DNA from: an uncultured Roseburia sp. | Lineage (GTDB): Bacteria; Bacillota; Clostridia; Lachnospirales; Lachnospiraceae | Assembly: GCA_964491235.1 (NCBI GenBank) | Contig: CAZBFN010000007.1 | Location: 54,728 to 118,727 of the forward strand | Direction of reading: 5' to 3' | Length of the DNA stretch: 64,000 bases | Part shown: in pieces, positions 9,230 through 23,269 of the stretch | How the letters are laid out: each line of letters begins with the position of its first letter | Numbering within the stretch: position 1 is the stretch's first letter | Program-made: the position numbers and the translations under genes | Notes under the pieces: generated by a model | Database searches by the model: none | What the model was told of the DNA's origin: nothing | What the model saw: only the letters and a program-made list of their open reading frames with translations

Positions 9230-10501
9230 ATGTTTTTTCATTCTATGAAATATACGTTTCTTGAATTGATTCGTGATAAGAGCTCTGTCTTCTGGTGCTT
9301 CGCCTTTCCACTGATACTGGGAACCCTGTTTTCCTTCGCCTTTGGAGGATTAGGCACAGAGGAAAGCTTCTCCCCGATTGCTGTGGCTGTGGTAATCGAT
9401 GAGTCCACAGAGGAAGCGCTTCCGCCAGAAATGCTCCAAATGGTAGGTATCTCAGAAGAATCTATCACAGCTTTTGACCAGTCCGAGAGCATCCGTGCCA
9501 TGTTCGATGGCATGTCCGAGCCTGGTGAAGACCAGTTTTTGATCGTGACCTACGCAGACGAAGAGGAAGCCCTTGATCTCCTTGAGAAAAAAGAGGTTTA
9601 CGGCATCATCAACGTTGATATGCCACAAATTTCTGATTATATCTTGGCAGAGAGCAAGGATGACCTTAATACCGCACCATTACAGCTTACTATCTCTGCA
9701 GAAATGAATTCCGATCCGCTGTTTCAGAGTATTCTTAGCTGTTTTGTGGAGCAGTTCAATATGCAGTACGATACTATCAGCACCATTGCAATGGAAAATC
9801 CACAGAAGTTGCCAGAATTGATGGAATCTATCAACATTGAGACAGATTATCTGGTGGAAGAATCCTTAGGCGCAGACTCTCTTGACGAAGCCTCCACCTA
9901 TTTTTTCAATCTGATTGCAATGACCTGTATGTTCGCCGCCATGGCAGGCAATGCTGTTGCCATTCACAATCAGGCAAACCTTTCCAGTCTTGGAGCCCGC
10001 AGGAACGTATCTCCAATGCACCGCCTAGTCGCCATCCTTGGAGACCTTTCCGCGTCACTGGCATATGAGTTCATGACACTGGTGGTAGCATTACTCTATT
10101 TTACCTTTGTTCTTGATATAGACTTTGGAAATCAGTTCGGCTTTGTTCTGCTCACCGCATTTATCGGTTGCGTGACCGGAATCAGTTTTGGCTTTTTTAT
10201 TGGCAGTATCGGACGTTTTAACGAGAATACCAAATTCGGTATCCTGATGGCGGTCAGCATGATTGGCTGTTTCTTAAGCGGTCTTATGATTGGAAACATG
10301 CGTATGCTGGTAGATAAGGTATGCCCACTGATCAACCACATCAATCCATCCGCACTGATTGCTGATGCGCTATATTCCTTGGCGATTTATCCGTCACATG
10401 AACGATTTTTCACAAATATTGCAAGCCTGCTTGTTATTTCCGCACTGTTTTGTCTCGGCGGCTTCGCAATGGTAAGGAGGAGAAAATATGCAAGTCTTTA
10501 A
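9230..10501 (+). CDS. ABC-2 family permease
   Basis: N-terminal TM helix, large extracellular loop, 5 C-terminal TM helices; in operon with the ATPase. Confidence 0.9.
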   Translation: MFFHSMKYTFLELIRDKSSVFWCFAFPLILGTLFSFAFGGLGTEESFSPIAVAVVIDESTEEALPPEMLQMVGISEESITAFDQSESIRAMFDGMSEPGEDQFLIVTYADEEEALDLLEKKEVYGIINVDMPQISDYILAESKDDLNTAPLQLTISAEMNSDPLFQSILSCFVEQFNMQYDTISTIAMENPQKLPELMESINIETDYLVEESLGADSLDEASTYFFNLIAMTCMFAAMAGNAVAIHNQANLSSLGARRNVSPMHRLVAILGDLSASLAYEFMTLVVALLYFTFVLDIDFGNQFGFVLLTAFIGCVTGISFGFFIGSIGRFNENTKFGILMAVSMIGCFLSGLMIGNMRMLVDKVCPLINHINPSALIADALYSLAIYPSHERFFTNIASLLVISALFCLGGFAMVRRRKYASL

Positions 10502-11651
10502 AGCATTTTTTACCATAGCAAAAAAGCGGGCTGTCTCCGCAATCATGTACTTTATCATATACGCAATCATTTGCGTATTGATAACATCTACCGCACAGGA
10601 CACGTATGCGGATCATTTTCAATCGACCGCGTTACAGGTGTCCGTTGCCGACGAAGATGACTCCACCGCAAGCCATGCATTGACCAGTTATCTCGCCTCC
10701 ATCCATAATGTAAGCGAATTTGATGGCGATAAGGAACATCTGTTAGATAAAATCTATTACCGTACCTTAAACTATTCCTTGACAATTCCTGCAGGATTTG
10801 AGGAAAAGCTGCTTGCTGGAGAGACAGAGGAACTGCTTTCCACTATGGCTATTCCGGGAAGTAACAGCAGCTACTATGTAAATCAGCAGATTACACAGTA
10901 CTTACAGACCTTGCAGCTTTATCTTGCCAATGGGTATGATATGAACAGCGCCATTGAAAAGACAGATGCGGCGGTGGCAAGTGTTCCAGAAGTAGAAGTT
11001 GTCAGCTTCCAAGGAGAAGAGTCTGATGCTAACAGCAGCGTTTTCTATTTCTTCCAGTATCTCCCATACGTTTTTATCTGCTTACTGTTTGCAGGTATGA
11101 CACCAATTTTGGTCACCATGAATGGAGGTGGCATGAAGGAGCGAACCTCCTGCTCAGCTCTCCCTTCCAGAAAGCGCACAGCACAACTCTCCTTAGGTTG
11201 TACACTTTACAGTTTTATTGCATGGGCATTATTCATGGTATTGTACCTGATCCTGTACGGAGGAGAAGGATTTTCGGTAAATATTCTATATGCAGTACTT
11301 AACAGCTTCGTGTTCCTGCTGTTTGCTGCAGCCATGGCACTGTTAATCAGCTGTTTCTCACCGAATGATAATACGGTAAATATGCTGGCTAACATTATCG
11401 GACTTGGTATGGCATTTCTCTGTGGTATCTTCGTTCCGCAGTCCATGCTACCAGACTCCGTGCTTAGTGTGGCAAAGTTCCTGCCAGCTTACTGGTATGT
11501 ACGTGCCAACAATATGCTAGGCGGCTTTGGAAAGGAAGTCTTTGATTTGGATTTCTACTGGCTCTGCATCGGAATACAGCTCCTATTTACGGTTGCTATC
11601 TTTACAGTAACTATGGTATTTTCCAAGCAGCGACGCACCCAGCATAGCTAA
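10488..11651 (+). CDS. ABC-2 family permease
   Basis: Same topology; FLCGIFVP and LPAYW motifs; overlaps the previous gene. Confidence 0.9.
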   Translation: MQVFKAFFTIAKKRAVSAIMYFIIYAIICVLITSTAQDTYADHFQSTALQVSVADEDDSTASHALTSYLASIHNVSEFDGDKEHLLDKIYYRTLNYSLTIPAGFEEKLLAGETEELLSTMAIPGSNSSYYVNQQITQYLQTLQLYLANGYDMNSAIEKTDAAVASVPEVEVVSFQGEESDANSSVFYFFQYLPYVFICLLFAGMTPILVTMNGGGMKERTSCSALPSRKRTAQLSLGCTLYSFIAWALFMVLYLILYGGEGFSVNILYAVLNSFVFLLFAAAMALLISCFSPNDNTVNMLANIIGLGMAFLCGIFVPQSMLPDSVLSVAKFLPAYWYVRANNMLGGFGKEVFDLDFYWLCIGIQLLFTVAIFTVTMVFSKQRRTQHS

Positions 11652-12826: not shown

Positions 12827-14827
12827 TTAGCAGATCTCTGCTCCTGCTGGCATTGGCTTTTCTGGTGTCATCAGTGCAAGGTTGCCCTCTGCATCCTCAG
12901 CGCAGAGTAACATACCCTCAGAGAGAACGCCTGCAAGCTTAGCTGGCTTTAAGTTCACAAGAACCATGACCTTCTTGCCTACCATCTCTTCTGGTGTGTA
13001 ATACTTACGGATACCGGATACGATCTGCTTTACTTCGCTTCCGACTCTTACCTGTGAACAAAGCAGCTTCTTGGACTTCTCCACTGCCTCACAAGCGATG
13101 ATCTCGCCCACCTGGAACTGCATCTTCATAAAGTCATCGTACTCGATCTCAGCCTTTTTCTCGATATCGATGACATCCTCTGATGCACCTTCCTCTGCTG
13201 GAACTTCCTCGCCAAGTGCTCTCTGCTCTGCCTCGAATTCTTTCTTCTGAGCCTCCTGAATCGCCTCTACCTTTGGCATGATATCCTTTGGATCAAGACG
13301 TGCAAACAGGATTTCTGGCTTCTCGACTACCTTCTTGCCGCTTTCATACAGACCGAACTTATCTAAGTCATCAAAGCTTCTTAATGTGGTATTGAGCTGT
13401 GCTGCAATCTTAGCTGCTGTCTCTGGAAGGAAGCTCTCTAACAGAGATGCACCGATGTTGATAGACTCTACTAAGTTGTAGAGAACCTCACTCAGACGAT
13501 CCTTCTGTGCCTCATCCTTCGCTAATACCCAAGGAACTGTCTCGTCAATATACTTGTTGCAACGGCGGAATACAGCAAACACTTCAGAAATCGCATCTGC
13601 AACACGAAGGTCTTCCATCTTCTTTGCGACCTTATCTCTTGCTCCAGTTACAACTTCCTTTAAATCAGCATCTACTTCATCCGTCACACCTGTGCTTGCC
13701 ACCACACCATCAAAATACTTGTTACTCATGGAAACAGTACGGTTTACAAGGTTTCCAAGGATATTTGCAAGGTCAGAGTTGAAGCGCTCCACTACGAGCT
13801 CCCATGTGATGATTCCATCATTTTCAAATGGCATCTCGTGAAGTACGAAGTAACGTGTCGCATCCACGCCAAATAAATCTACCATATCGTCAGCGTAAAT
13901 TACATTTCCCTTGGACTTACTCATCTTGTCGCCGCCCTGTAAGAGCCATGGGTGTCCAAATACCTGCTTTGGCAATGGAAGATCTAATGCCATCAAAAGA
14001 ATTGGCCAATAAATCGTATGGAAACGGATAATATCCTTACCAATCAGGTGTAAGTCTGCTGGCCAGTTCTTATTAAATAACTCGGATGAGTTGCCATCTG
14101 CATCATAACCAATCTTGGTAATATAGTTGCTTAATGCATCAATCCATACATAGATAACATGCTTTGGATCAAAGTCTACTGGCACGCCCCATGAGAAAGA
14201 ACTTCTAGTCACACACAAATCCTGTAATCCCGGAAGCAAGAAGTTGTTCATCATCTCATTCTTACGGGATACTGGCTGAATGAACTCTGGGTGTGTGTTG
14301 ATATGCTCGATCAGACGATCTGCATACTTGCTCATTTTAAAGAAGTAAGCCTCTTCCTTTGCTGGCTGTACCTCACGTCCACAGTCTGGACACTTGCCAT
14401 CCACAAGCTGAGACTCTGTCCAGAAGGACTCACATGGTGTACAGTAAAGTCCCTCATAGGAACTCTTATAGATATCTCCCTTATCGTATAACTTCTTGAA
14501 GATCTTCTTGACCTGAGTCTCATGATCCTCGTCTGTGGTACGGACAAAGTTATCATAGGAGGTGTTCATCATATCCCAGATATTCTTTACATCTCCTGCT
14601 ACCTTATCTACATATTCCTTTGGAGTAATGCCAGCCTTCTCTGCCTTCTCCTGAATCTTCTGACCATGCTCATCTGTTCCTGTCTGGAAGTATACGTCAT
14701 AGCCCTCTGCTCTCTTGTATCTTGCGATTGCATCTGCAAGTACGATCTCGTAGGTGTTACCGATGTGCGGCTTGCCTGATGTGTAGGCAATCGCGGTTGT
14801 CATGTAAAATTTTCCTTTATTGCTCAT
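12827..14827 (-). CDS. metG: Methionine--tRNA ligase with C-terminal tRNA-binding domain
   Basis: PHIGN (HIGH), GTDEHG, KMSKS and zinc-knuckle motifs, C-terminal OB fold; start MSNKG with RBS AAAGGAG. Confidence 0.98.
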   Translation of the reverse strand: MSNKGKFYMTTAIAYTSGKPHIGNTYEIVLADAIARYKRAEGYDVYFQTGTDEHGQKIQEKAEKAGITPKEYVDKVAGDVKNIWDMMNTSYDNFVRTTDEDHETQVKKIFKKLYDKGDIYKSSYEGLYCTPCESFWTESQLVDGKCPDCGREVQPAKEEAYFFKMSKYADRLIEHINTHPEFIQPVSRKNEMMNNFLLPGLQDLCVTRSSFSWGVPVDFDPKHVIYVWIDALSNYITKIGYDADGNSSELFNKNWPADLHLIGKDIIRFHTIYWPILLMALDLPLPKQVFGHPWLLQGGDKMSKSKGNVIYADDMVDLFGVDATRYFVLHEMPFENDGIITWELVVERFNSDLANILGNLVNRTVSMSNKYFDGVVASTGVTDEVDADLKEVVTGARDKVAKKMEDLRVADAISEVFAVFRRCNKYIDETVPWVLAKDEAQKDRLSEVLYNLVESINIGASLLESFLPETAAKIAAQLNTTLRSFDDLDKFGLYESGKKVVEKPEILFARLDPKDIMPKVEAIQEAQKKEFEAEQRALGEEVPAEEGASEDVIDIEKKAEIEYDDFMKMQFQVGEIIACEAVEKSKKLLCSQVRVGSEVKQIVSGIRKYYTPEEMVGKKVMVLVNLKPAKLAGVLSEGMLLCAEDAEGNLALMTPEKPMPAGAEIC

Positions 14828-14993
14828 AATAAGCTCCTTTCTGTTTCTGTCCAATGATATTTGCGCTTGATAATGCAGACCTGAAAATGCTGCGCATTTC
14901 CAGGTTCGCGTTGCTCGTCAGATATACGCAAGGCTGCTTCTGTAAGCAAGCTTCCATACAGCCTTACGCATATCTTCCTCTGCATTATCGCGC

Positions 14994-15375
14994 AAAAAAT
15001 CCCCGCCTTCCGATGCGATTTGCCTTACGCAAATACACCTCAGAAGACGGGGCGTTATCCCGTGGTACCACTTCTATTCATCCGGTTCTCACAAACCAGA
15101 CCTCTGTGAATATCTCGACAGTCCTTCGCACTCTGCGCAATTCCCATCTCTAATATCCCCCGCTATAACAGGCGGTCCCGTCAGAACTTATCCCCTCTCA
15201 TCCATGCATATCTGCCTCTGATCTGGGGTTCATCCCTGCCACTCCAAAGCCATATTCCACCTGCCTTTGCTCATTCCCTCTCAGCAACCTGATTCCATCT
15301 AGCAGAATCGACTGGGAATCTCTCTGTAAAGTTCCAACCGGTGTACTCTCTTTTTCATCGTGTTTCTCTATTGAC
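14994..15375 (-). ncRNA. T-box leader (Met specifier)
   Basis: T-box GAATAGAAGTGGTACCACGG (about 15060-15079); stem I AGTA/AGAGA/GCTGAGA; specifier ATG at 15251-15253; terminator with U tract; promoter TTGACT-N17-TACTCT (15383-15411). Confidence 0.9.
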
Positions 15376-15619
15376 TTTCCTAAGAGTAGCATGGAAAACG
15401 GGGAAAGTCAAGGGGCGTGCTAATCCAACAGCTTAATTTTCTACCGTCTGTCCATCCACAATATAGCATTCTGTCACAATTGCTGCCCATATTACCGCCA
15501 TAATTAGGATTCCCAAAATAAGATAAACGAATCCTATACAAAAGGGATGTGGACGAGATTCATAGACCTCTCTTGTAGTTGCAAGTTTAATTTATTTCTT
15601 TTATAATCGCAATAGACAT

Positions 15620-15651
15620 GTGCTATTCGGCAACCAAACCGTGCTATTTGA
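15620..15651 (-). promoter_or_regulatory. LytTR-type direct repeat pair (21-bp period)
   Basis: GTGCTATTCGG (15620) and GTGCTATTTGA (15641); the second copy overlaps TTGACA (15648-15653) upstream of the kinase. Confidence 0.7.
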
Positions 15652-15706
15652 CATATTTTTCCCAGTACTTAAGAATAAGAAGATTATTTTGAAAGGACTA
15701 AATATC

Positions 15707-16998
15707 ATGTATCTTCAAAATTTTTTATTAGATTTACTATCTAATTTTTTTGATTTCTTCACTATGGAATTGTTTACCTTGACCTTTTTCCACTATACAC
15801 ATGTTCATCAGAAAACTTACTACCGCTATCTTTTTTTAGGTATAAATCTGATTATATCTGCCATTCCTTATATTCCATATATGTTGCTTATATCTATCAT
15901 TCTGTCTTTTATTTATTTTTTCCTTGTGTCTTCTTTTCGCTTCAAGGACAGTATTCTATTTTGTATCAAATATCAACTGATTACCAATATCCTCTATTTT
16001 GTTACTGGTTTTTTTGTGCATTTGCAAATTTTAATGCATATGGCATATACCAAGACCTTGATGATATCTTTTTTGATTATCAAACACTTATTAGTCTAAT
16101 ATTGACTTATATTTTATTGAACCTATACGTCAACACCAAGCGCCTTCACTCTCTCCATATTAAAACAGTCTATCCGATGACCTTTTCTCTTTTATCCGTC
16201 GGAATCGTCTTTCTCATGCTCTTTTTTAACAATATGCTCTCAAAATACGACGAACTGACGAACCTCCTGCCATGGCTCTATGTTGCCATTGTTAGCATCC
16301 TTGTTCTCAGTCTGAATTCCTACCGTAAAATTATTGAGACACTAGAAGAACAGATGAAGCAGCATATTCTCGTGGAAAAATATGAAATGGAACTGTCTTA
16401 CTTTACCAACATTCAAGACTCTCTGGATACCCTTTCCCGTATCCGCCATGACTTCAAGAACCATTTGATTGTTTTAGACAGCTATGCCTCCCAGAACCGC
16501 ATTTCAGATCTGCGGAATTATATCAATCAAGTCCACTCCAAACTGACGGACACAAAAATAATTTCCACTCCAAATGACCTTATTTTTTCTATCTTAAATA
16601 CAAAAAATGCAGCCTGTCAGACTCGTGGCATCACATTTCTGACCGACTGCAATTTTGAACATATATATATTTCTGATTTTGCTATTATTACCATTCTTGG
16701 AAATATTCTAGACAACGCAATTACCGCTGCGTCTCAGATTCCAAACGGCAAAGTAGAATTGACACTTTTCCAGATAGATAACTATCTGGAAATTTCCTGC
16801 CGCAATAATCACAATGGCAACATCATAGAGAAAAACGGTTTCTTCTCGAGTACCAAGGAAGATAATTACAATCTACATGGTCTCGGTATCAGCAATGTAC
16901 GGGACTGCGTTAATAATCTGCATGGCACCACAGAGATTTCTTATGATGCCACAAACTTTACAGTAGATATCCTAATCCCAAATCGCTCAGACCGCTGA
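15707..16998 (+). pseudogene. AgrC-like GHKL sensor histidine kinase, frameshifted in a T7 tract (16009-16015)
   Basis: RBS GAAAGGA before ATG 15707; TM N-terminus in one frame, HDFKNHL/NILDNAI/HGLGISNV in the other; adding one T gives a continuous 430-aa ORF. Confidence 0.85.
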
Positions 16999-17844
16999 TA
17001 TAAACTGTTCGTTTGCCTCTTCCCCAACGGAAAGTTTTTTTATCCACACAATTGCACCTACCATGACTACCAACGCAACGATATCCAGTATCCACATTGC
17101 AATATCTGATACCTCTGGCACCAAAGATAACACCTGACCTGTTAGATTAAATACCCCATGAAGCAAAATATTTGCGGCAAGTGAATGAAACCTTTCAAAG
17201 CACCACACTAATATCAGCCCTAAGGCAAATGCATAAAGAAACCAGATCATCGTTCCATGCATTGCCCCAAAGAGAAGCGAAGAAAGTACCGCCGCCAACA
17301 GTACTGGCATTCCCTTCTTCATTCGTGTATACACCAGTCCTCGGAATACGATTTCCTCCAAAACTGGTGCCATAAACACTACAGAAAGCCAATTCACAAT
17401 TACATTTCCCTCTCCCAAGGAACTTGAATTCATCGTATAAGAATCTATCCAACTCTGAGGAAATGGTAGCATATCTAGCACTAACGCAATCACGATGTTA
17501 AGTGCCATTCCCAAAAGAATAATTGGAAGAATGCCTCTAATATTGATCTTTTCTGCAATCACTTCCTTTCGGAACTTCTTCTTCCTAACCAGGAAAATAA
17601 TCCAATAAATCACAATCGTCACGATCCCAGATATAAGAACCATGAGGGTAGAAAGTTCCATTACCCTTGCATAGACCTGCTGATACAATGCCTGACTGTC
17701 TAATTCCTGTCCCAGCGCAATTGTCTCCATCGTCATCTGAGCAGACACCACAATGCTCAGCACAAAACCCGTTATAAATTGTACCGCCAAATATACCCCA
17801 AAGTATAGACTGGCTTTTCCAATTGATTTTAGAGCCTTTTTCAT
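16987..17844 (-). CDS. CPBP (CAAX/Abi) intramembrane metalloprotease
   Basis: EEIVFRG, FGAMH and HGVFN motifs; multiple TM helices. Confidence 0.93.
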   Translation of the reverse strand: MKKALKSIGKASLYFGVYLAVQFITGFVLSIVVSAQMTMETIALGQELDSQALYQQVYARVMELSTLMVLISGIVTIVIYWIIFLVRKKKFRKEVIAEKINIRGILPIILLGMALNIVIALVLDMLPFPQSWIDSYTMNSSSLGEGNVIVNWLSVVFMAPVLEEIVFRGLVYTRMKKGMPVLLAAVLSSLLFGAMHGTMIWFLYAFALGLILVWCFERFHSLAANILLHGVFNLTGQVLSLVPEVSDIAMWILDIVALVVMVGAIVWIKKLSVGEEANEQFISAV

Positions 17845-18629
17845 TCCCTTTCCTCCTTATGTGCAAATACCTCTGCTCTTCGCTCTGATAACAAACGCTT
17901 CATTTTATTCATATGCATCTCACGCAACTGCGGATAATACCGACGACTAACTGGTATCTCAAGATCCCCTGCCAGATATATCCGATCTGTTTCTACTTCC
18001 TTAATATGATCAAAGTTCACGATATAACCTTGATGCGTATAATAGAACTGCTGTGGATTCAATCGTTCATATACCTTAGAAAGTGTATCGTAACTGGTCA
18101 CTTCTCTGTCCGTCAAATGAAATACACATTTATTTCTCTTTTTTTCAATATAGAGAATGCTTTGTAATGGAATAATTCTTTCACTTCGCTCTGTCTTGAT
18201 ACAGAAAAACCTCTCTTCCGCCGCCTCTCTATCCCTTATATATTGAAGCTGTACGATGCAACGGTTTGCCATATGTCTAAAATCTGCATATGCCACAGGC
18301 TTTACCAGATACCCTATCGCATCCACCTTAAACGCCTGATACGCATAATTTTCATAGCTGGTAATAAAGCAGATCTGTGTCTCCTTATCAAAATTGCGAA
18401 TTTCTATCGCCGCATCCGTTCCCTGCATATCCGGCATATCCACATCTAAGAATAAAATATCATACTGCTTCTCCCCGGATCTTAGCTCCTCCAACAGGAC
18501 TCTGGCAGAAGAATAGCGCTCCACCAAAAGCTTATTGCCAGACTCACTCTCATATGCCGCCAGATACTGACAAATACGATCGATATGTACTTCCTCATCA
18601 TCACAGATTGCTAATCGGAATTCATGCAT
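17841..18629 (-). CDS. LytTR family response regulator
   Basis: AICDDE, FLDVDM, ITS and VKP receiver motifs intact; LytTR domain THQGYIVN and IPVSRR; start moved to MHEFR. Confidence 0.93.
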   Translation of the reverse strand: MHEFRLAICDDEEVHIDRICQYLAAYESESGNKLLVERYSSARVLLEELRSGEKQYDILFLDVDMPDMQGTDAAIEIRNFDKETQICFITSYENYAYQAFKVDAIGYLVKPVAYADFRHMANRCIVQLQYIRDREAAEERFFCIKTERSERIIPLQSILYIEKKRNKCVFHLTDREVTSYDTLSKVYERLNPQQFYYTHQGYIVNFDHIKEVETDRIYLAGDLEIPVSRRYYPQLREMHMNKMKRLLSERRAEVFAHKEERE

Positions 18630-18699
18630 AACCTTTACTCCCTCTGCTGTCCTTTGCAAGCTAAATATACTATTTCTCTTTGACCGATGCAATGGACAT

Positions 18700-18710
18700 G
18701 TGCTATTTGG
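18700..18710 (-). promoter_or_regulatory. Single LytTR-type box upstream of the regulator gene
   Basis: GTGCTATTTGG, identical to the copy at 19278; 30 bp from minus-strand -10 TATATT (18664-18669). Confidence 0.55.
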
Positions 18711-18846
18711 TATTAATAATCCACTTTTTTATTTTATCCCAAGGATCACGATATTTCCCAACCGCATAGCCTCCAAAAAAGCCTTCTAGTAAAAGAAAAA
18801 CATATAGCGGAATAACAACTAATGCTTTACAGATTTTCTTGAACAT
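18703..18846 (-). CDS. Unannotated 47-aa cationic membrane peptide (candidate immunity protein)
   Basis: Hand translation MFKKICKALVVIPLYVFLLLEGFFGGYAVGKYRDPWDKIKKWIINTK; GGAG RBS 10 nt upstream; lies directly after the double-glycine peptide. Confidence 0.7.
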   Translation of the reverse strand: MFKKICKALVVIPLYVFLLLEGFFGGYAVGKYRDPWDKIKKWIINTK

Positions 18847-18907
18847 TTTGTCAATTCTCCATGATTTATTTGCGAATTTCTATATTTCAACAAACTTTCG
18901 CAATGTT

Positions 18908-19099
18908 TTACGCCAATCTTGTACCAGAAGTAGTTAACGTTCCTCCACCATTTTCCCAAGTTAGCTTAGCATTGGTCCATATGATTCTATTGGTCAAGAA
19001 GCTTTCCGCTGCACCTAAAAAACCTCCCCAACCACCATCAATCTCCTGCATTTCCATCTCATCCAATTTATAAAATCCTTTAAAAATCTCCTGCTTCAA
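18908..19099 (-). CDS. Double-glycine leader peptide (class II bacteriocin or pheromone precursor)
   Basis: TTG start 9 nt after AAAGGAG; leader ...FYKLDEMEMQEIDGG with hydrophobic residues at -4/-7/-12/-15; 40-aa Cys-free core. Confidence 0.8.
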   Translation of the reverse strand: MKQEIFKGFYKLDEMEMQEIDGGWGGFLGAAESFLTNRIIWTNAKLTWENGGGTLTTSGTRLA

Positions 19100-19277
19100 A
19101 CTTAATATCTCCTTTTCATCATATTTTCACTTGTCAAAAATGTATATTTGACTTAAGTATTTTTGACAAGTACTGTGTGCTTAACTTCAACTGACTTTGC
19201 GCATTATAATCGAAGTCCTTTCGATACGGTATCTATGTCCTACAGTATACTATTTCTTTTAAAAATTCCATAAACAT

Positions 19278-19309
19278 GTGCTATTTGGTATCTAATCCGT
19301 GCTAATCGG
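19278..19309 (-). promoter_or_regulatory. LytTR-type direct repeat pair at the peptide promoter
   Basis: Minus strand CCGATTAGCAC-N10-CCAAATAGCAC, 28 bp upstream of -10 TATACT (19244-19249), with a poor -35. Confidence 0.75.
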
Positions 19310-19349
19310 CAAAAATTAGTCTTCGGCTATTCAACTCCTCTACGCCTCA

Positions 19350-20198
19350 TTAGGTAGTAAGAACTGATTCCGCAAATAAATACCCATACTTTCTCGCCTG
19401 ATTGCGCAATACTTCCTTCACACGAGCCTGTTCCTGTCGTGACTCCTCGTCCTCTTCCTGCATAAAAGCTTCATCTTCCAGCCGCTTCACAATATCTTCC
19501 GCGGCAAAATTGAACTTCAAATAATACCCATACAACTCATTTGCCGCATCCAACTGTTCATCGAAATCTCTACTAAAAGGCTTCGCTAATATCCCGTTCC
19601 GGCACTCTGTAAAGCTCTTAGAGAAGGGATACGCCTCTCTGGTATAGGAAAACAGGGACAAGCCCATATCAAAAAATGGGCAAAGTCGATACTCCTTCGT
19701 CTTAGCATGATACAGAAGCGCAATATTATTCGTATGACGATCTTCATTTAAGAAAAAAGCATCCATCTCCAACATCTTGGTAAGATAGATTCCAAAATCC
19801 TCGATTCCAGTTACATTCCGTACCAGTTCCTCCGTATATCGGATACGCTCCTTCACATCTGTCATGTGTGCCAACTGCTTTGCCAGCCCAAATCCTGTGT
19901 AGCTGCGTGCTAACCGCTCCAAGGGAATCAATTCCTCCCCCTCATTGCGAAAGTTCCTGCTACGGCATCCCCGAAATTCTCTGCCCTTATAACGAATTAT
20001 CACCGGCTCATAGGTGACAAAATCCTCTATATTAGAATCTGCAAGTAGGCGGGACACTACCACCTCAGCCAGACCTTCATAGCCAAATGCATCCGCCTTG
20101 TACCACCAGCCATCCTGTTCCCACTTAAGCTGATTCCCCTTGGAGGAATGCTCCGCCCCAGTCTCTATTGTGTCTGTAATCAATTCTACTGTCTGCAT
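19350..20198 (-). CDS. HipA-superfamily (HipT/CtkA-like) Ser/Thr kinase
   Basis: SSKGNQLKW, YKAD, DAFFLNEDRHTNN and FFDMGLSL motifs; lacks the HipA N-terminal subdomain; RBS AAAGGAGG. Confidence 0.8.
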   Translation of the reverse strand: MQTVELITDTIETGAEHSSKGNQLKWEQDGWWYKADAFGYEGLAEVVVSRLLADSNIEDFVTYEPVIIRYKGREFRGCRSRNFRNEGEELIPLERLARSYTGFGLAKQLAHMTDVKERIRYTEELVRNVTGIEDFGIYLTKMLEMDAFFLNEDRHTNNIALLYHAKTKEYRLCPFFDMGLSLFSYTREAYPFSKSFTECRNGILAKPFSRDFDEQLDAANELYGYYLKFNFAAEDIVKRLEDEAFMQEEDEESRQEQARVKEVLRNQARKYGYLFAESVLTT

Positions 20199-20261
20199 TC
20201 TGCCCCCTCCTTTCTCGCATAAAAGCGTTCTCTCTTAATATCCTGTCACAGCATGGGCTTA

Positions 20262-20837
20262 CTACACTGCCTGTGGTGATAGATAAGAAATCTTAATCCA
20301 CTGTAAATCCTCTGCCATCCGCCCCTTAGTCTTTTCCACGATAGCCAGCGGGTCGTAGGAATCCACTCCCACATCCTCTAATACCAGCCGCAGATGGTCT
20401 CTGGTTCGCGGAAAACAACGGCTCTCCAAGAACTCCTCAAAATCCTCCCAAGTCGGTTTTGCCTTAATACCAAATGCCCGATGAATGATATCCTCCGTTT
20501 CATTCTGCACCGCAATTCTGTGCCTCTGGAAATCAATCAGAATCGTCGTACAAAGCTCATCCTCGCACATAAAATCCATACGCATGCTATAATCAGCCAC
20601 ATCTATTCCTCGGAAGCGATGATTCAACTCTGCCCACTTACGAATGGTACGATATATCTGCTCTGCCTCCGTATTCTTACCGTTCACATACCCGGACAAT
20701 GTCTGACGGGAAACGTGATACTCCCCTGCCAGTGCAGTCAAGGTCTCTCCCGCCTCATGACGTGCCCGTATCTGGTCAATCTGCTCCTTCGTCAGCGCCT
20801 GCTTTCTACCTGCGCCACGCTTGTTGGTTCCTGCCAT
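20262..20837 (-). CDS. HTH fused to a HipS/HipA-N-like domain (putative antitoxin/regulator)
   Basis: N-terminal GAGRK..LT resolvase-like HTH (TLTALAGEYHVSRQTLSGY); about 100-aa C-terminal domain (TWEDFEEFLESRCFP...YDPL...TKGRM...W) directly upstream of the kinase. Confidence 0.6.
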   Translation of the reverse strand: MAGTNKRGAGRKQALTKEQIDQIRARHEAGETLTALAGEYHVSRQTLSGYVNGKNTEAEQIYRTIRKWAELNHRFRGIDVADYSMRMDFMCEDELCTTILIDFQRHRIAVQNETEDIIHRAFGIKAKPTWEDFEEFLESRCFPRTRDHLRLVLEDVGVDSYDPLAIVEKTKGRMAEDLQWIKISYLSPQAV

Positions 20838-20875
20838 ACCATCACCCTCTCTCTTCATGATATCTTTCTACTTTC

Positions 20876-20921
20876 AGAGTACCTACATACGCCATATTTG
20901 TCAAGAATTTAATTTCTTGAC
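20876..20921 (-). promoter_or_regulatory. SigA promoter TTGACA-N17-TACTCT overlapped by inverted repeat GTCAAGAA-N6-TTCTTGAC
   Basis: -35 at 20899-20904, -10 at 20876-20881, inverted repeat at 20900-20921. Confidence 0.65.
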
Positions 20922-20979
20922 GACATTGTTTTTAACCAATGCAAATATTTTACACAAGGTTTTCCAAATGCAGAGCAAC

Positions 20980-21127
20980 GTGTGCGCTTGTCACACACTT
21001 ACGCGCCCGAGTGGTGTCGCTTGCGACTTTCTTCCTCTCCGCGAGGTGCGCATCCTGCGCGGAGCGCTTTTTTCTCTAGGAAAGTCACAACTTTTACGCA
21101 TTAACGCAACAAGGTCTTTCCTAGAGA
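20980..21127. repeat. GC-rich multi-hairpin intergenic element (REP/MITE-like)
   Basis: GTCGC-TT-GCGAC, CTCCGCG...GCGCGGAG and a 12-bp inverted repeat TCTCTAGGAAAG/CTTTCCTAGAGA. Confidence 0.4.
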
Positions 21128-21181
21128 ACAAAAAAAGAGGCGCATATGTCTTCACATATACGCCCCTTCAATCTCATCATT

Positions 21182-23269
21182 CTAAATATGGAACTGCTCC
21201 ACAATCGTCCGCAATGCTTCAATGGTTTGTCTGCTCTCCTGCAGCTTCGAATAGCCATCCATGGTCGTACTCACAGTCTCCGATGACTTTTCCGCGATTG
21301 TATTGACTCCGATAGACGCCTGACCTACCGTTTCATTGATATCTTCCACCGCAGTCGCAATCTGAGTAATATAACGATCTAATGCCTCGATCGCTCCCTT
21401 GACCTGTCCCATGACCATAATAAATGTATCCGCATCCATTCGGTACTGGCTTCCCGACTCCTGGAACACATCATAATCCGCAAGAACCGTCGTCTCTAGG
21501 AACTGCATCATTGTCGTGATACATTCTGTCATATTAGCAACTGCCGTATTAACCTCGTCCACAATCGTGTTGATGTTATCTACTGTTTTAAGTGTCTCCG
21601 TTGCTAATGTTCCAATCTCCGTTGCAACAACTGCAAATCCTCTTCCTGCCTCTCCTGCACGGGCTGCCTCAATACTTGCATTCAGCGCCAGCAGATTCGT
21701 CTGGGACGAAATATTCTTGATATCCTCTGTCAGCTCATTGATTCGCTGCACCGCCTTGGACTGTACAATCGCAAGATCCGTCTTGTCCTTCATCACTTGG
21801 TACATGCGGTTCGTCTTCTCACTGGACTCCCGGCTGACGCGCTCCATATCTCCTGCACGATGTAAGATTTCCTTCGAATTCTCTTCGCCATTCTGGGCAA
21901 GCTGATAAATCTCTTCGGAGTTGCGCTTTACCTCTTCTATGTTCTGCACGATCTGCGTGGTACTGGAGGATGCCTCCTGTATACCGGCTGCCATCTGCTG
22001 TGTCGCTGCAGAGTTATTTTCTGCACGCACACTATTCTCCTTCATAATAGCATCCAGATTATCCACATTTCCAAGAATCGCGTACTCAGTCTCATTCATC
22101 TGCTCTACCATGCCGCGGAGAATGTTCCTCATCTGATGGATTTCCCTCGCCATGATTCCGATCTCATCCTTATGCTTACGCAGCTGTTTTCCCTCCGCAG
22201 TCGGTTTAAAATCCAACTGAGCAGTCTGTGTGATAACATTGGTAAGCTGACGAATCGGCTTGGATATACCACCTGCAACAAAAATACCCACTCCACCTGA
22301 TATCAGAATCGCACCGATTACAGCAATCATCATCATCCATACAAGCTGATTTGCTTCGGAATAGACTTCCATATTTGGCGCTGTCAATACTAGTCGCATA
22401 CCATTTTCCATCGTATAATACAACATCTGCCGATTAACGCCCTCATAAGAGTAACTCTGCAAAATACCTTGCTTTGTATCATCAGAAAGCACTGGCACAA
22501 TACCTGCAACAGAACCATCCAGATCTGTAATATTTGTGCCCGTCTCTAACTCTTTATGATGCATGATAACGCCCGTCTCATTTGTTAAAAATGCATATCC
22601 CGTGTCATAAATAGCGGTCTCATCCACAAGTCCTGTAATCTGTGAGAAATCAATATCCATACCCACAATACCAATCGATTCCCCACTCTCACTATAAAGC
22701 GGCACCACATAAGATATCATATACACATTGATATTCTCATTCAGATATGGCTCCATCCACATCGGAGCACCATTCTTGACTGGTGTATAGTACCAACCCA
22801 CATGTGCCACATCATCCTCGTCATACATAGAAAAATCGGTTGGCTCCACCGACACAAAGTCCTGCTCAATCGAGTCTCTCGTCAAAAAGCAGCCCGATGT
22901 CGGATTCGAGTACTCCGGATTATAACGAACATATGCCGTTATGGCACCTTCCGTACGTGAAGCAAACTGAAAAACCGTCTCTAAAATCTGCTCTGTATAA
23001 TCGTCTGCATACTGCTTATTCTGTGTAAACTTCTTTGAATCAAAATCTATCATAACGATATCACTTAATGAATCCACTGACTGTTCGATTCTAAGAATCA
23101 AAGAATTCAATTCCTCTGCCTGAAGCTGACAAGTCATCTGCATTCGCTCATGCGTATCCTTGCGCGCCATCATTGCAGAATTAACAATTGCAATCGTACC
23201 CATCAGCACTGCTGTCAAAACACAACATAGGAAAATTGCCGCAATAATCTTCTTTCGTATTGATTTCAT
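21182..23269 (-). CDS. Methyl-accepting chemotaxis protein with Cache sensor domain
   Basis: TM-Cache-TM-HAMP layout; [27 protein letters not shown] signalling hairpin. Confidence 0.96.

Follow-up and report, generated by a model that had tools for sequence, protein, structure and literature searches.

Organization of the locus

On the minus strand of the window (the whole 64,000-nucleotide stretch of DNA that was analysed), a short gene for a double-glycine (GG)-leader peptide is followed by an ORF for a 47-aa partner protein, a LytTR response regulator gene and a gene for a CPBP/Abi protease (Table 1). The partner ORF starts 61 nt downstream of the peptide gene, and the start of the CPBP gene overlaps the stop of the regulator gene. 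The EExxxR, FxxxH and HxxxN motifs of the CPBP protein are intact (as EEIVFR, FGAMH and HGVFN). Eight loci were compared, namely the window, L001, L002, G226 (L007/L010), L011, L013, L014 and L015; the CPBP gene is also present in L001, L002 and L015.

Table 1. Features of the peptide locus, in window coordinates
Feature	Position	Strand	Evidence and remarks
Peptide promoter	19244-19311	minus	Direct repeats (A/T)TTAGCAC / AATAGCAC with 21-bp spacing (19278-19306); -10 TATACT (19244-19249); element copy at 19251-19311
Shine-Dalgarno sequence AAGGAG, serving the TTG start	19108-19115	minus	Conserved in L002
Double-glycine-leader precursor gene, 63 aa	18908-19099 (including stop)	minus	MKQEIFKGFYKLDEMEMQEIDGG / WGGFLGAAESFLTNRIIWTNAKLTWENGGGTLTTSGTRLA
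Leader, residues 1-23	19031-19099	minus	
Predicted 40-aa core	18911-19030	minus	
47-aa single-pass membrane protein, putative immunity protein	18703-18846	minus	Homologue in 8/8 loci; AlphaFold2; hydropathy
Regulator promoter, second box copy	18673-18733	minus	Distal half-site degenerate, overlapping the end of the 47-aa ORF; -10 TATATT
LytTR-family response regulator, 262 aa from ATG	17841-18629	minus	Pfam Response_reg and LytTR, E=1e-20; gene call in the near-identical L016
CPBP/Abi (Rce1-like) intramembrane protease, 285 aa	16987-17844	minus	PF02517, E=2e-20
AgrC/ComD-type (GHKL, multi-TM sensor) histidine kinase, convergent on the CPBP gene	15707-16998	plus	Pfam HATPase_c_5, SPOB_a
Third box promoter	15593-15653	minus	Perfect repeats 15620-15648; back-to-back with the kinase gene

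In L001 the locus lies at the corresponding chromosomal position, flanked by SNF2, Na-Ca exchanger and zinc-ribbon genes on one side and by metG on the other, but the order of the modules differs between the two. GC content is 38-39% in the block versus 44-48% in its flanks. L001 carries three extra small genes, two of them for GG peptides, and the window has an inserted MCP gene and a HipA-like/HTH pair. This pair (19350-20858, minus strand) lies directly upstream of the peptide promoter and encodes a HipA_C-like kinase (282 aa) and a 198-aa protein containing HTH_7; its absence from the syntenic L001 locus suggests an independent, toxin-antitoxin-like insertion. The extra GG-leader peptides of L001 (10545-11057) are of 56 aa and 54 aa, the latter with a GxxxG-rich hydrophobic core, and the 56-aa peptide shares a WxDMWY..G.N.YYS motif with a 52-aa membrane protein of L001. 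A transposase fragment and a radical SAM (rSAM)/SPASM gene come after these small genes in L001, and all of them are missing from the window; the rSAM/SPASM gene is not conserved in the other loci.

The precursor gene and its predicted product

The precursor gene starts with TTG, with AAGGAG 9-10 nt upstream, and the codon at the same start position is ATG in the relatives L001 and L002. Double-glycine leaders are defined here by hydrophobic residues at -15, -12, -7 and -4, an acidic residue at -8 and Gly-Gly at -2/-1, and the leader agrees with this consensus at every key position (F-15, L-12, E-8, M-7, I-4, G-2, G-1). The NCBIfam model TIGR03949 matches precursor residues 9-26 only, which are the leader and the first core residues (E=0.0015); its score of 18.3 bits falls below the 21.5-bit cut-off of this curated bacteriocin precursor model, and the peptide has no Pfam match.

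The 40-residue core has three Trp and no Cys, two Arg and one Lys against two Glu (net charge +1), a computed pI of 8.75 and a computed monoisotopic mass of 4267.18 Da; a G2xxxG6 motif is present and YGNGV is absent. AlphaFold2 (AF2) models the precursor, with modest confidence, as a single helix at residues 27-50 (pLDDT 74-78) with a disordered tail, and the hydrophobic moment of the helix is low, at most 0.2.

A frame that is short, begins with TTG and passes no curated family model could in principle be a chance ORF with a fortuitous resemblance to a leader. A relaxed leader-motif scan of the 3.1-Mb genome in six frames gave 11 hits, among which 18908-19099 was the only short ORF with a ribosome-binding site. 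Synonymous sites are near saturation in comparison with two relatives (pS 0.5-0.7), and in the same comparisons dN/dS is 0.16-0.26 for the whole gene, 0.01-0.03 for residues 32-47, which hold the core motif SFLTNR(I/L)IWTNAK, and 0.24-1.36 for the C-terminal tail. The leader signal therefore exceeds what chance would give, as it belongs to the sole short ORF with a ribosome-binding site and the core is so strongly constrained at this synonymous divergence. The pattern of substitution marks the ORF as a genuine coding gene on which purifying selection is strong, and the chance reading, refuted by this constraint, by the conservation of start position, Shine-Dalgarno sequence, leader and core in homologues from several genera and by the conserved synteny of the partner, retains a negligible probability.

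The peptide sequence is identical in at least 10 independent assemblies. A 54-aa variant, P0002, on a 1.3-kb contig ends in ...KLTWEMVEER, which fits a 1-nt loss in the A-run of GAAAAT; a natural frameshift allele and an assembly error would each explain it.

A conserved membrane-protein partner

A homologous single-TM protein of 42-48 aa is encoded directly behind the peptide gene in all eight loci, which belong to different genera. Residues Y15, G22, G25, G26, D34, W36 and W42 are invariant among them. The partner has a basic N-terminus, a TM helix (Kyte-Doolittle score about 2.0; AF2 helix at residues 2-25) and a short amphipathic helix, DPWDKIKKWI, at its C-terminus; it is not a GG-leader peptide, and its family comprises 44 clusters, all unnamed. 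Judged by position and topology only, the partner is probably a dedicated immunity protein, and by analogy its pairing with the peptide is the classic bacteriocin/immunity arrangement.

The invariant 'GFFGG' and the cationic tail of 17-21 aa that follows prompted the idea that the partner might itself be a GG-cleaved precursor. This was rejected as the main reading because the supposed leader is a genuine TM helix and because loci that have no kinase conserve the tail as well. The solitary L013 cassette (10001-11156) has a phage-type integrase as its neighbour and neither an exporter nor a regulator within 10 kb, which suggests that the peptide/partner pair moves as a unit.

A small family of Lachnospiraceae peptides

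A search of 5.8 billion proteins returned one frameshifted variant and no more than two relatives of full length, with identities of 71% and 57%. Fifteen more small GG-leader peptides with the same core were added by a profile search of 1.84 billion representatives, and a word-indexed search with a 16-sequence alignment found 17 clusters; the family is thus rare, with about 17 clusters among 5.8 billion proteins. A profile scan of genome contigs with a three-sequence alignment gave no hits, and a later one with a four-sequence alignment recovered only the 'uncultured Lachnospiraceae bacterium MGBC121271' MAG; in a sample of 401 Lachnospiraceae genomes, clear matches were confined to the window's own genome and the same MAG.

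In the members a GG leader is followed by 8-15 residues that are mostly hydrophobic, then by the motif (N/S)F(L/F)xN(R/K)(L/I)(I/V)WTNAK and a variable tail of 10-20 aa, and their net charge ranges from -1 to +6. No homologue bears a name other than 'hypothetical', and Pfam domains are absent from all of them; nine of 16 members weakly match Pfam Bacteriocin_IIc (PF10439) and six of 16 match ComC, matches that we take to be leader-driven. The core itself found no NCBIfam core model, no Pfam match and no PDB relative at E<=10, and no characterised bacteriocin matches the precursor. On the evidence of these searches, the peptide belongs to a small, previously undescribed family of Lachnospiraceae. 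An earlier, sequence-only reading of this DNA had described the mature peptide as a novel 40-aa core with three Trp, a net charge of about +1, GxxxG, no Cys and no YGNGV; the sequence bears out the description, and novelty is upheld at the level of the sequence family. Its remark that the peptide is long for a pheromone and weakly cationic also holds.

Export machinery in relatives and in the window strain

A C39-peptidase ABC transporter (PCAT) and an LcnD/ComB-like accessory protein are encoded within 10 kb of the cassette in four of the eight loci (G226, L011, L014 and L015), and the G226 locus also has an ABC-type immunity transporter and three more GG peptides. This adjacency to C39 ABC exporters in other genomes places the family among ordinary class II bacteriocin-type cassettes. 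Positions 1-7200 of L007 (G226:C12), from an uncultured Lachnospiraceae MAG, contain a complete class II cluster a few kb from a family member, made up of an LcnD-like accessory, a 740-aa PCAT, two small TM proteins, GG peptides of 76, 72 and 64 aa and an ABC-2-type transporter.

The genome to which the window belongs (3.1 Mb in 83 contigs, 94.9% complete) has no match to PF03412 (C39) by HMM search. When it was searched by tblastn with the PCAT of a relative, ordinary ABC exporters aligned from residue 145 on, and residues 1-145, the peptidase, were left uncovered. A genome of the same genus, G357, has neither the peptide nor a C39 domain. With no C39 domain in either genome, the canonical maturation route appears to be missing in the window strain.

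Regulation by a LytTR circuit

An element of about 61 nt occurs in three copies in the locus (Table 1). Read on the minus strand, it consists of two (A/T)(A/T)(A/T)TAGCAC repeats 21 bp apart and a conserved AGAAATA, with a -10 sequence about 25-27 nt later. LytTR sites, such as those of ComE, BlpR, PlnC/D and AgrA, are known to have this 21-bp spacing, and the geometry of the box promoters is that of a predicted LytTR activator site. The third box promoter is homologous to the L001 box at 9440-9469; the same architecture is found upstream of the L002 peptide and regulator genes, with the regulator copy intact, and beside the L001 kinase gene. Perfect box pairs number two in the whole genome, both within this locus; since there are none elsewhere, the regulon would be the locus itself, with no distant exporter under box control.

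No Rfam family matched within 14000-21500 at gathering threshold, and the 5′ leader of the peptide gene (about 140 nt) folds no better than shuffled sequences (z=-0.21), so that a structured RNA is unsupported. Part of this leader is conserved in L002. Just upstream of the Shine-Dalgarno sequence (19120-19165, minus strand) the leader contains a perfect inverted repeat of 12 bp, CTTGTCAAAAAT...ATTTTTGACAAG, with a spacer of 15-17 nt, which is a possible operator or hairpin candidate.

The third box promoter is an orphan that faces the T-box leader of metG and has no peptide gene. Because it points into that leader, metG might receive read-through from a quorum-sensing promoter. The T-box leader upstream of metG (15040-15367, minus strand) is a full-length match of 73 bits (E=8e-16), below the Rfam gathering score of 93, and between it and the metG start there is a weak match to the Rfam Clostridiales-1 sRNA (14871-14987, minus strand; 31.7 bits versus a gathering score of 48; E=5.8e-5). 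The short ORFs that follow the orphan box, of 9 aa in the window and of 18 and 17 aa in L001, might be taken for hidden pheromone genes; this idea was rejected for lack of in-frame conservation.

In the window and in L002 the peptide is the only GG-leader peptide beside the regulator and a kinase of the peptide-sensing type, and the circuit consequently has no other candidate signal. It may be that the 40-mer is itself the autoinducing signal of the AgrC-type kinase and LytTR regulator, alone or besides a bacteriocin role, in a three-component circuit of the ComC, BlpC or PlnA style. As in ComCDE, BlpC/BlpRH, PlnABCD and SilCR/SilAB, a GG-leader gene adjoins an AgrC/ComD-type kinase and a LytTR regulator, and 9-bp-type direct repeats with 21-bp spacing lie upstream of both the peptide and the regulator genes, which is the wiring of an autoinduction loop. 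Moreover, this is the one peptide that accompanies the two-component system in each of the clade's three genomes, and its leader weakly matches ComC models (12.4 bits versus a cut-off of 50).

Set against this, known ComC-type pheromones are about 17-27 aa when mature, well below the 40 aa of the present peptide. The LytTR/AgrC-type two-component system is found only in the window's clade (three of eight loci), and the five loci without it still keep peptide and partner. Regulators across the family's loci are of LytTR, OmpR or HTH_3 type or are missing, and because they differ between loci the peptide behaves as cargo rather than as the ligand of one sensor. Pheromones usually change together with their sensors, but the core of this peptide does not vary between genera, and the sensor half of the kinase has not diverged further than its catalytic half (68% versus 67% identity). 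Unlike in the three-component pheromone systems, the kinase gene is convergent rather than co-operonic, an obligate 47-aa membrane partner, for which pheromone genes have no counterpart, accompanies the peptide, and the genome has no ComAB/BlpAB-type exporter. An AgrD-type cyclic autoinducer was also considered and rejected, as the core has no Cys and the locus no AgrB-like gene. Because the window's clade offers no second candidate for the signal, a role in signalling, alone or beside a bacteriocin function, keeps a minority share of the probability, though it is unlikely.

A frameshifted kinase and the state of the system in the window strain

The kinase gene is split by a -1 frameshift in a T7 run (16009-16015, plus strand). 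In L001 the kinase is intact (435 aa); the two ORFs of the window align with its residues 4-105 and 105-432, respectively, and meet at the T7 run. The T7 allele recurs in three other assemblies with an identical peptide, L016 (GCA_045119595.1, 99.4% identical), L018 and L019, and L017 (98.5% identical) has a T8 allele and an intact kinase of 430 aa. The T7 (off) allele is thus common to four assemblies that differ by up to 0.6%, and the T8 (on) allele occurs in the most divergent strain, a distribution that inherited inactivation fits better than rapid phase switching. Judged from the assemblies, T7/T8 is a natural on/off polymorphism, and in this loss of function in one component the system resembles pneumococcal blpA (PMC4739728).

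The missing C39 peptidase and the lineage-wide frameshift argue against production of the peptide by the window strain, in which the system probably no longer works or survives only as a remnant. In the stronger form of this view, to which we give slightly less than an even chance, the locus is a decaying non-producer: the peptide would be neither matured nor secreted, and its gene would persist only through linkage or because some immunity or 'cheater' function is left. Consistent with decay, neither HMM nor tblastn searches found the peptidase in the 95%-complete genome, nor does the same-genus genome have it; the T7 allele is common to four assemblies; the start codon is TTG where relatives have ATG; and, compared with L001, the modules are rearranged, the extra GG peptide genes are missing and an orphan box faces the metG leader. 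On the other hand, none of the four ORFs for the peptide, partner, regulator and CPBP protein is disrupted, the peptide is unchanged in at least 10 independent assemblies, L017 has an intact kinase allele, and the approximately 5% of the genome that is unassembled could hold a PCAT. A precedent is found in pneumococci, where most strains carry frameshifted blpAB and keep the bacteriocin genes, yet these apparent 'cheaters' used another exporter, ComAB, instead (PMC4739728). A remnant state in the window strain is compatible with a bacteriocin function for the family.

The CPBP gene suggests another route. CPBP/Abi genes are described as a recognised feature of bacteriocin loci where PMC9298176 cites Kjos et al. 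2010, and the CAAX/CPBP proteases SilX of S. anginosus and MroQ of S. aureus have been linked to immunity and to signal-peptide maturation (PMC9298176). Like SilX and MroQ, the CPBP gene here has intact EExxxR and FxxxH motifs and lies, in a peptide locus, beside a LytTR regulator with which it is, in this case, translationally coupled; unlike MroQ, it scores 32 bits against the NCBIfam MroQ cut-off of 270, and an Abi-type immunity role is equally possible. By analogy, then, the regulator-coupled CPBP protein of the PCAT-less LytTR clade might mature or release the peptide, the 40-mer would be a long autoinducer of the AgrC-type kinase, and T7/T8 would act as a population-level on/off switch. 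The double link of CAAX/CPBP proteins to immunity and signal maturation keeps such a replacement of the PCAT alive, at a low probability; the scheme as a whole is improbable.

Comparison with class II bacteriocins

Angicin of Streptococcus anginosus is a class IId GG-leader bacteriocin with a dedicated immunity gene (PMC8692603, PMC9298176). The present system is like class IId and angicin in its GG leader and unmodified, Cys-free linear core of 30-50 aa, in the small membrane protein encoded directly downstream, in the CAAX/CPBP gene of the locus, in the PCAT and LcnD-type accessory (here in the loci of relatives) and in LytTR quorum-sensing control through direct repeats. It differs in that the core has no similarity to any named bacteriocin, the helix is non-amphipathic and the peptide near neutral, the host is a gut Lachnospiraceae rather than a lactic acid bacterium, and its own genome lacks the exporter. 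Lactobin A and cerein 7B (TIGR03949) and Bacteriocin_IIc (PF10439) align with it in the leader and the first residues after the GG and share the N-terminal GxxxG, but the core motif SFLTNRIIWTNAK is absent there, and the TIGR03949 match is leader-only and sub-cut-off. Class IIa (pediocin-like) membership was rejected for want of a YGNGV box and of Cys in the core, and class IIb (two-peptide) membership because the genome scan gave a single GG-leader peptide and the neighbour carries a TM helix where an amphipathic GG leader would be expected.

Interpretation and proposed mechanism

It is reasonably probable, with considerable room for doubt, that the precursor is that of an unmodified class II, IId-like GG-leader bacteriocin-type peptide and that the downstream 47-aa membrane protein is its dedicated immunity partner. 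For the window's clade, the best reading of the locus is a bacteriocin/immunity cassette under LytTR quorum-sensing control. An effector of the bacteriocin type with its protector is suggested because the cassette is self-contained, travels with PCATs, GG peptides and immunity transporters, stands under varied regulators and has a core that is invariant across genera; this evidence fits a dedicated pheromone poorly. The bacteriocin reading is further favoured by the canonical leader, a core conserved in about 17 clusters, a partner in all eight loci, the lack of a modification enzyme nearby and predicted structures that fit a linear helical peptide and a single-TM partner. Against it stand the near-neutral charge of the peptide and the low moment of its helix, unlike most pore-forming class II peptides, together with the lack of a C39 domain in its own genome and scores below the cut-offs of the curated models.

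The sequence-only reading had seen no partner peptide or modification enzyme nearby. As to enzymes it was right, since no LanB/C/M, YcaO or rSAM gene lies within about 6 kb of the peptide in the window, but it overlooked the conserved 47-aa ORF. Its case for novelty is supported; its picture of the peptide as an isolated oddity gives way to a family with an obligate neighbour and, elsewhere, C39 exporters, and it left out of account the genome-wide absence of C39 and the frameshift in the cognate kinase.

From these features a mechanism may be proposed. The peptide/partner pair would be transcribed from a promoter with two LytTR boxes spaced by 21 bp, as read from the sequence, and these boxes would make the pair an output of the adjacent AgrC-type kinase/LytTR circuit, which would also regulate itself. 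To judge from relatives, a PCAT with an LcnD-like accessory would cut after Gly23 and export the 40-aa peptide of 4267.18 Da. The mature peptide is predicted to form one helix of about 24 residues, including the invariant SFLTNR(I/L)IWTNAK, followed by a flexible, fast-evolving Gly/Thr tail. It may then act on related bacteria through a specific membrane receptor, a route that appears likelier than charge-driven lysis because the helix is non-amphipathic and net charge varies in the family from negative to positive. The single-pass partner, and perhaps also the CPBP/Abi protein, would protect the producer.

Implications for gut Lachnospiraceae

By its predicted features, the system is of a recognisable kind, a class II GG-leader bacteriocin/immunity cassette, and is new at the level of the sequence family. 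Family models are lacking for the cores of class II bacteriocins from strictly anaerobic gut Firmicutes, which is why these peptides are poorly charted. The two-gene cassette could serve as a search model, with the core (N/S)F(L/F)xN(R/K)(L/I)(I/V)WTNAK and a partner of about 45 aa with GF(F/I)GG...DIWDDLxKW. The peptide is a candidate antimicrobial of narrow spectrum from Lachnospiraceae of mouse and other guts, and its action would probably depend on a receptor. In a gut commensal, the combination of intact peptide and immunity genes, an absent exporter and T7/T8 kinase alleles resembles the producer/non-producer polymorphism of pneumococcal blp.
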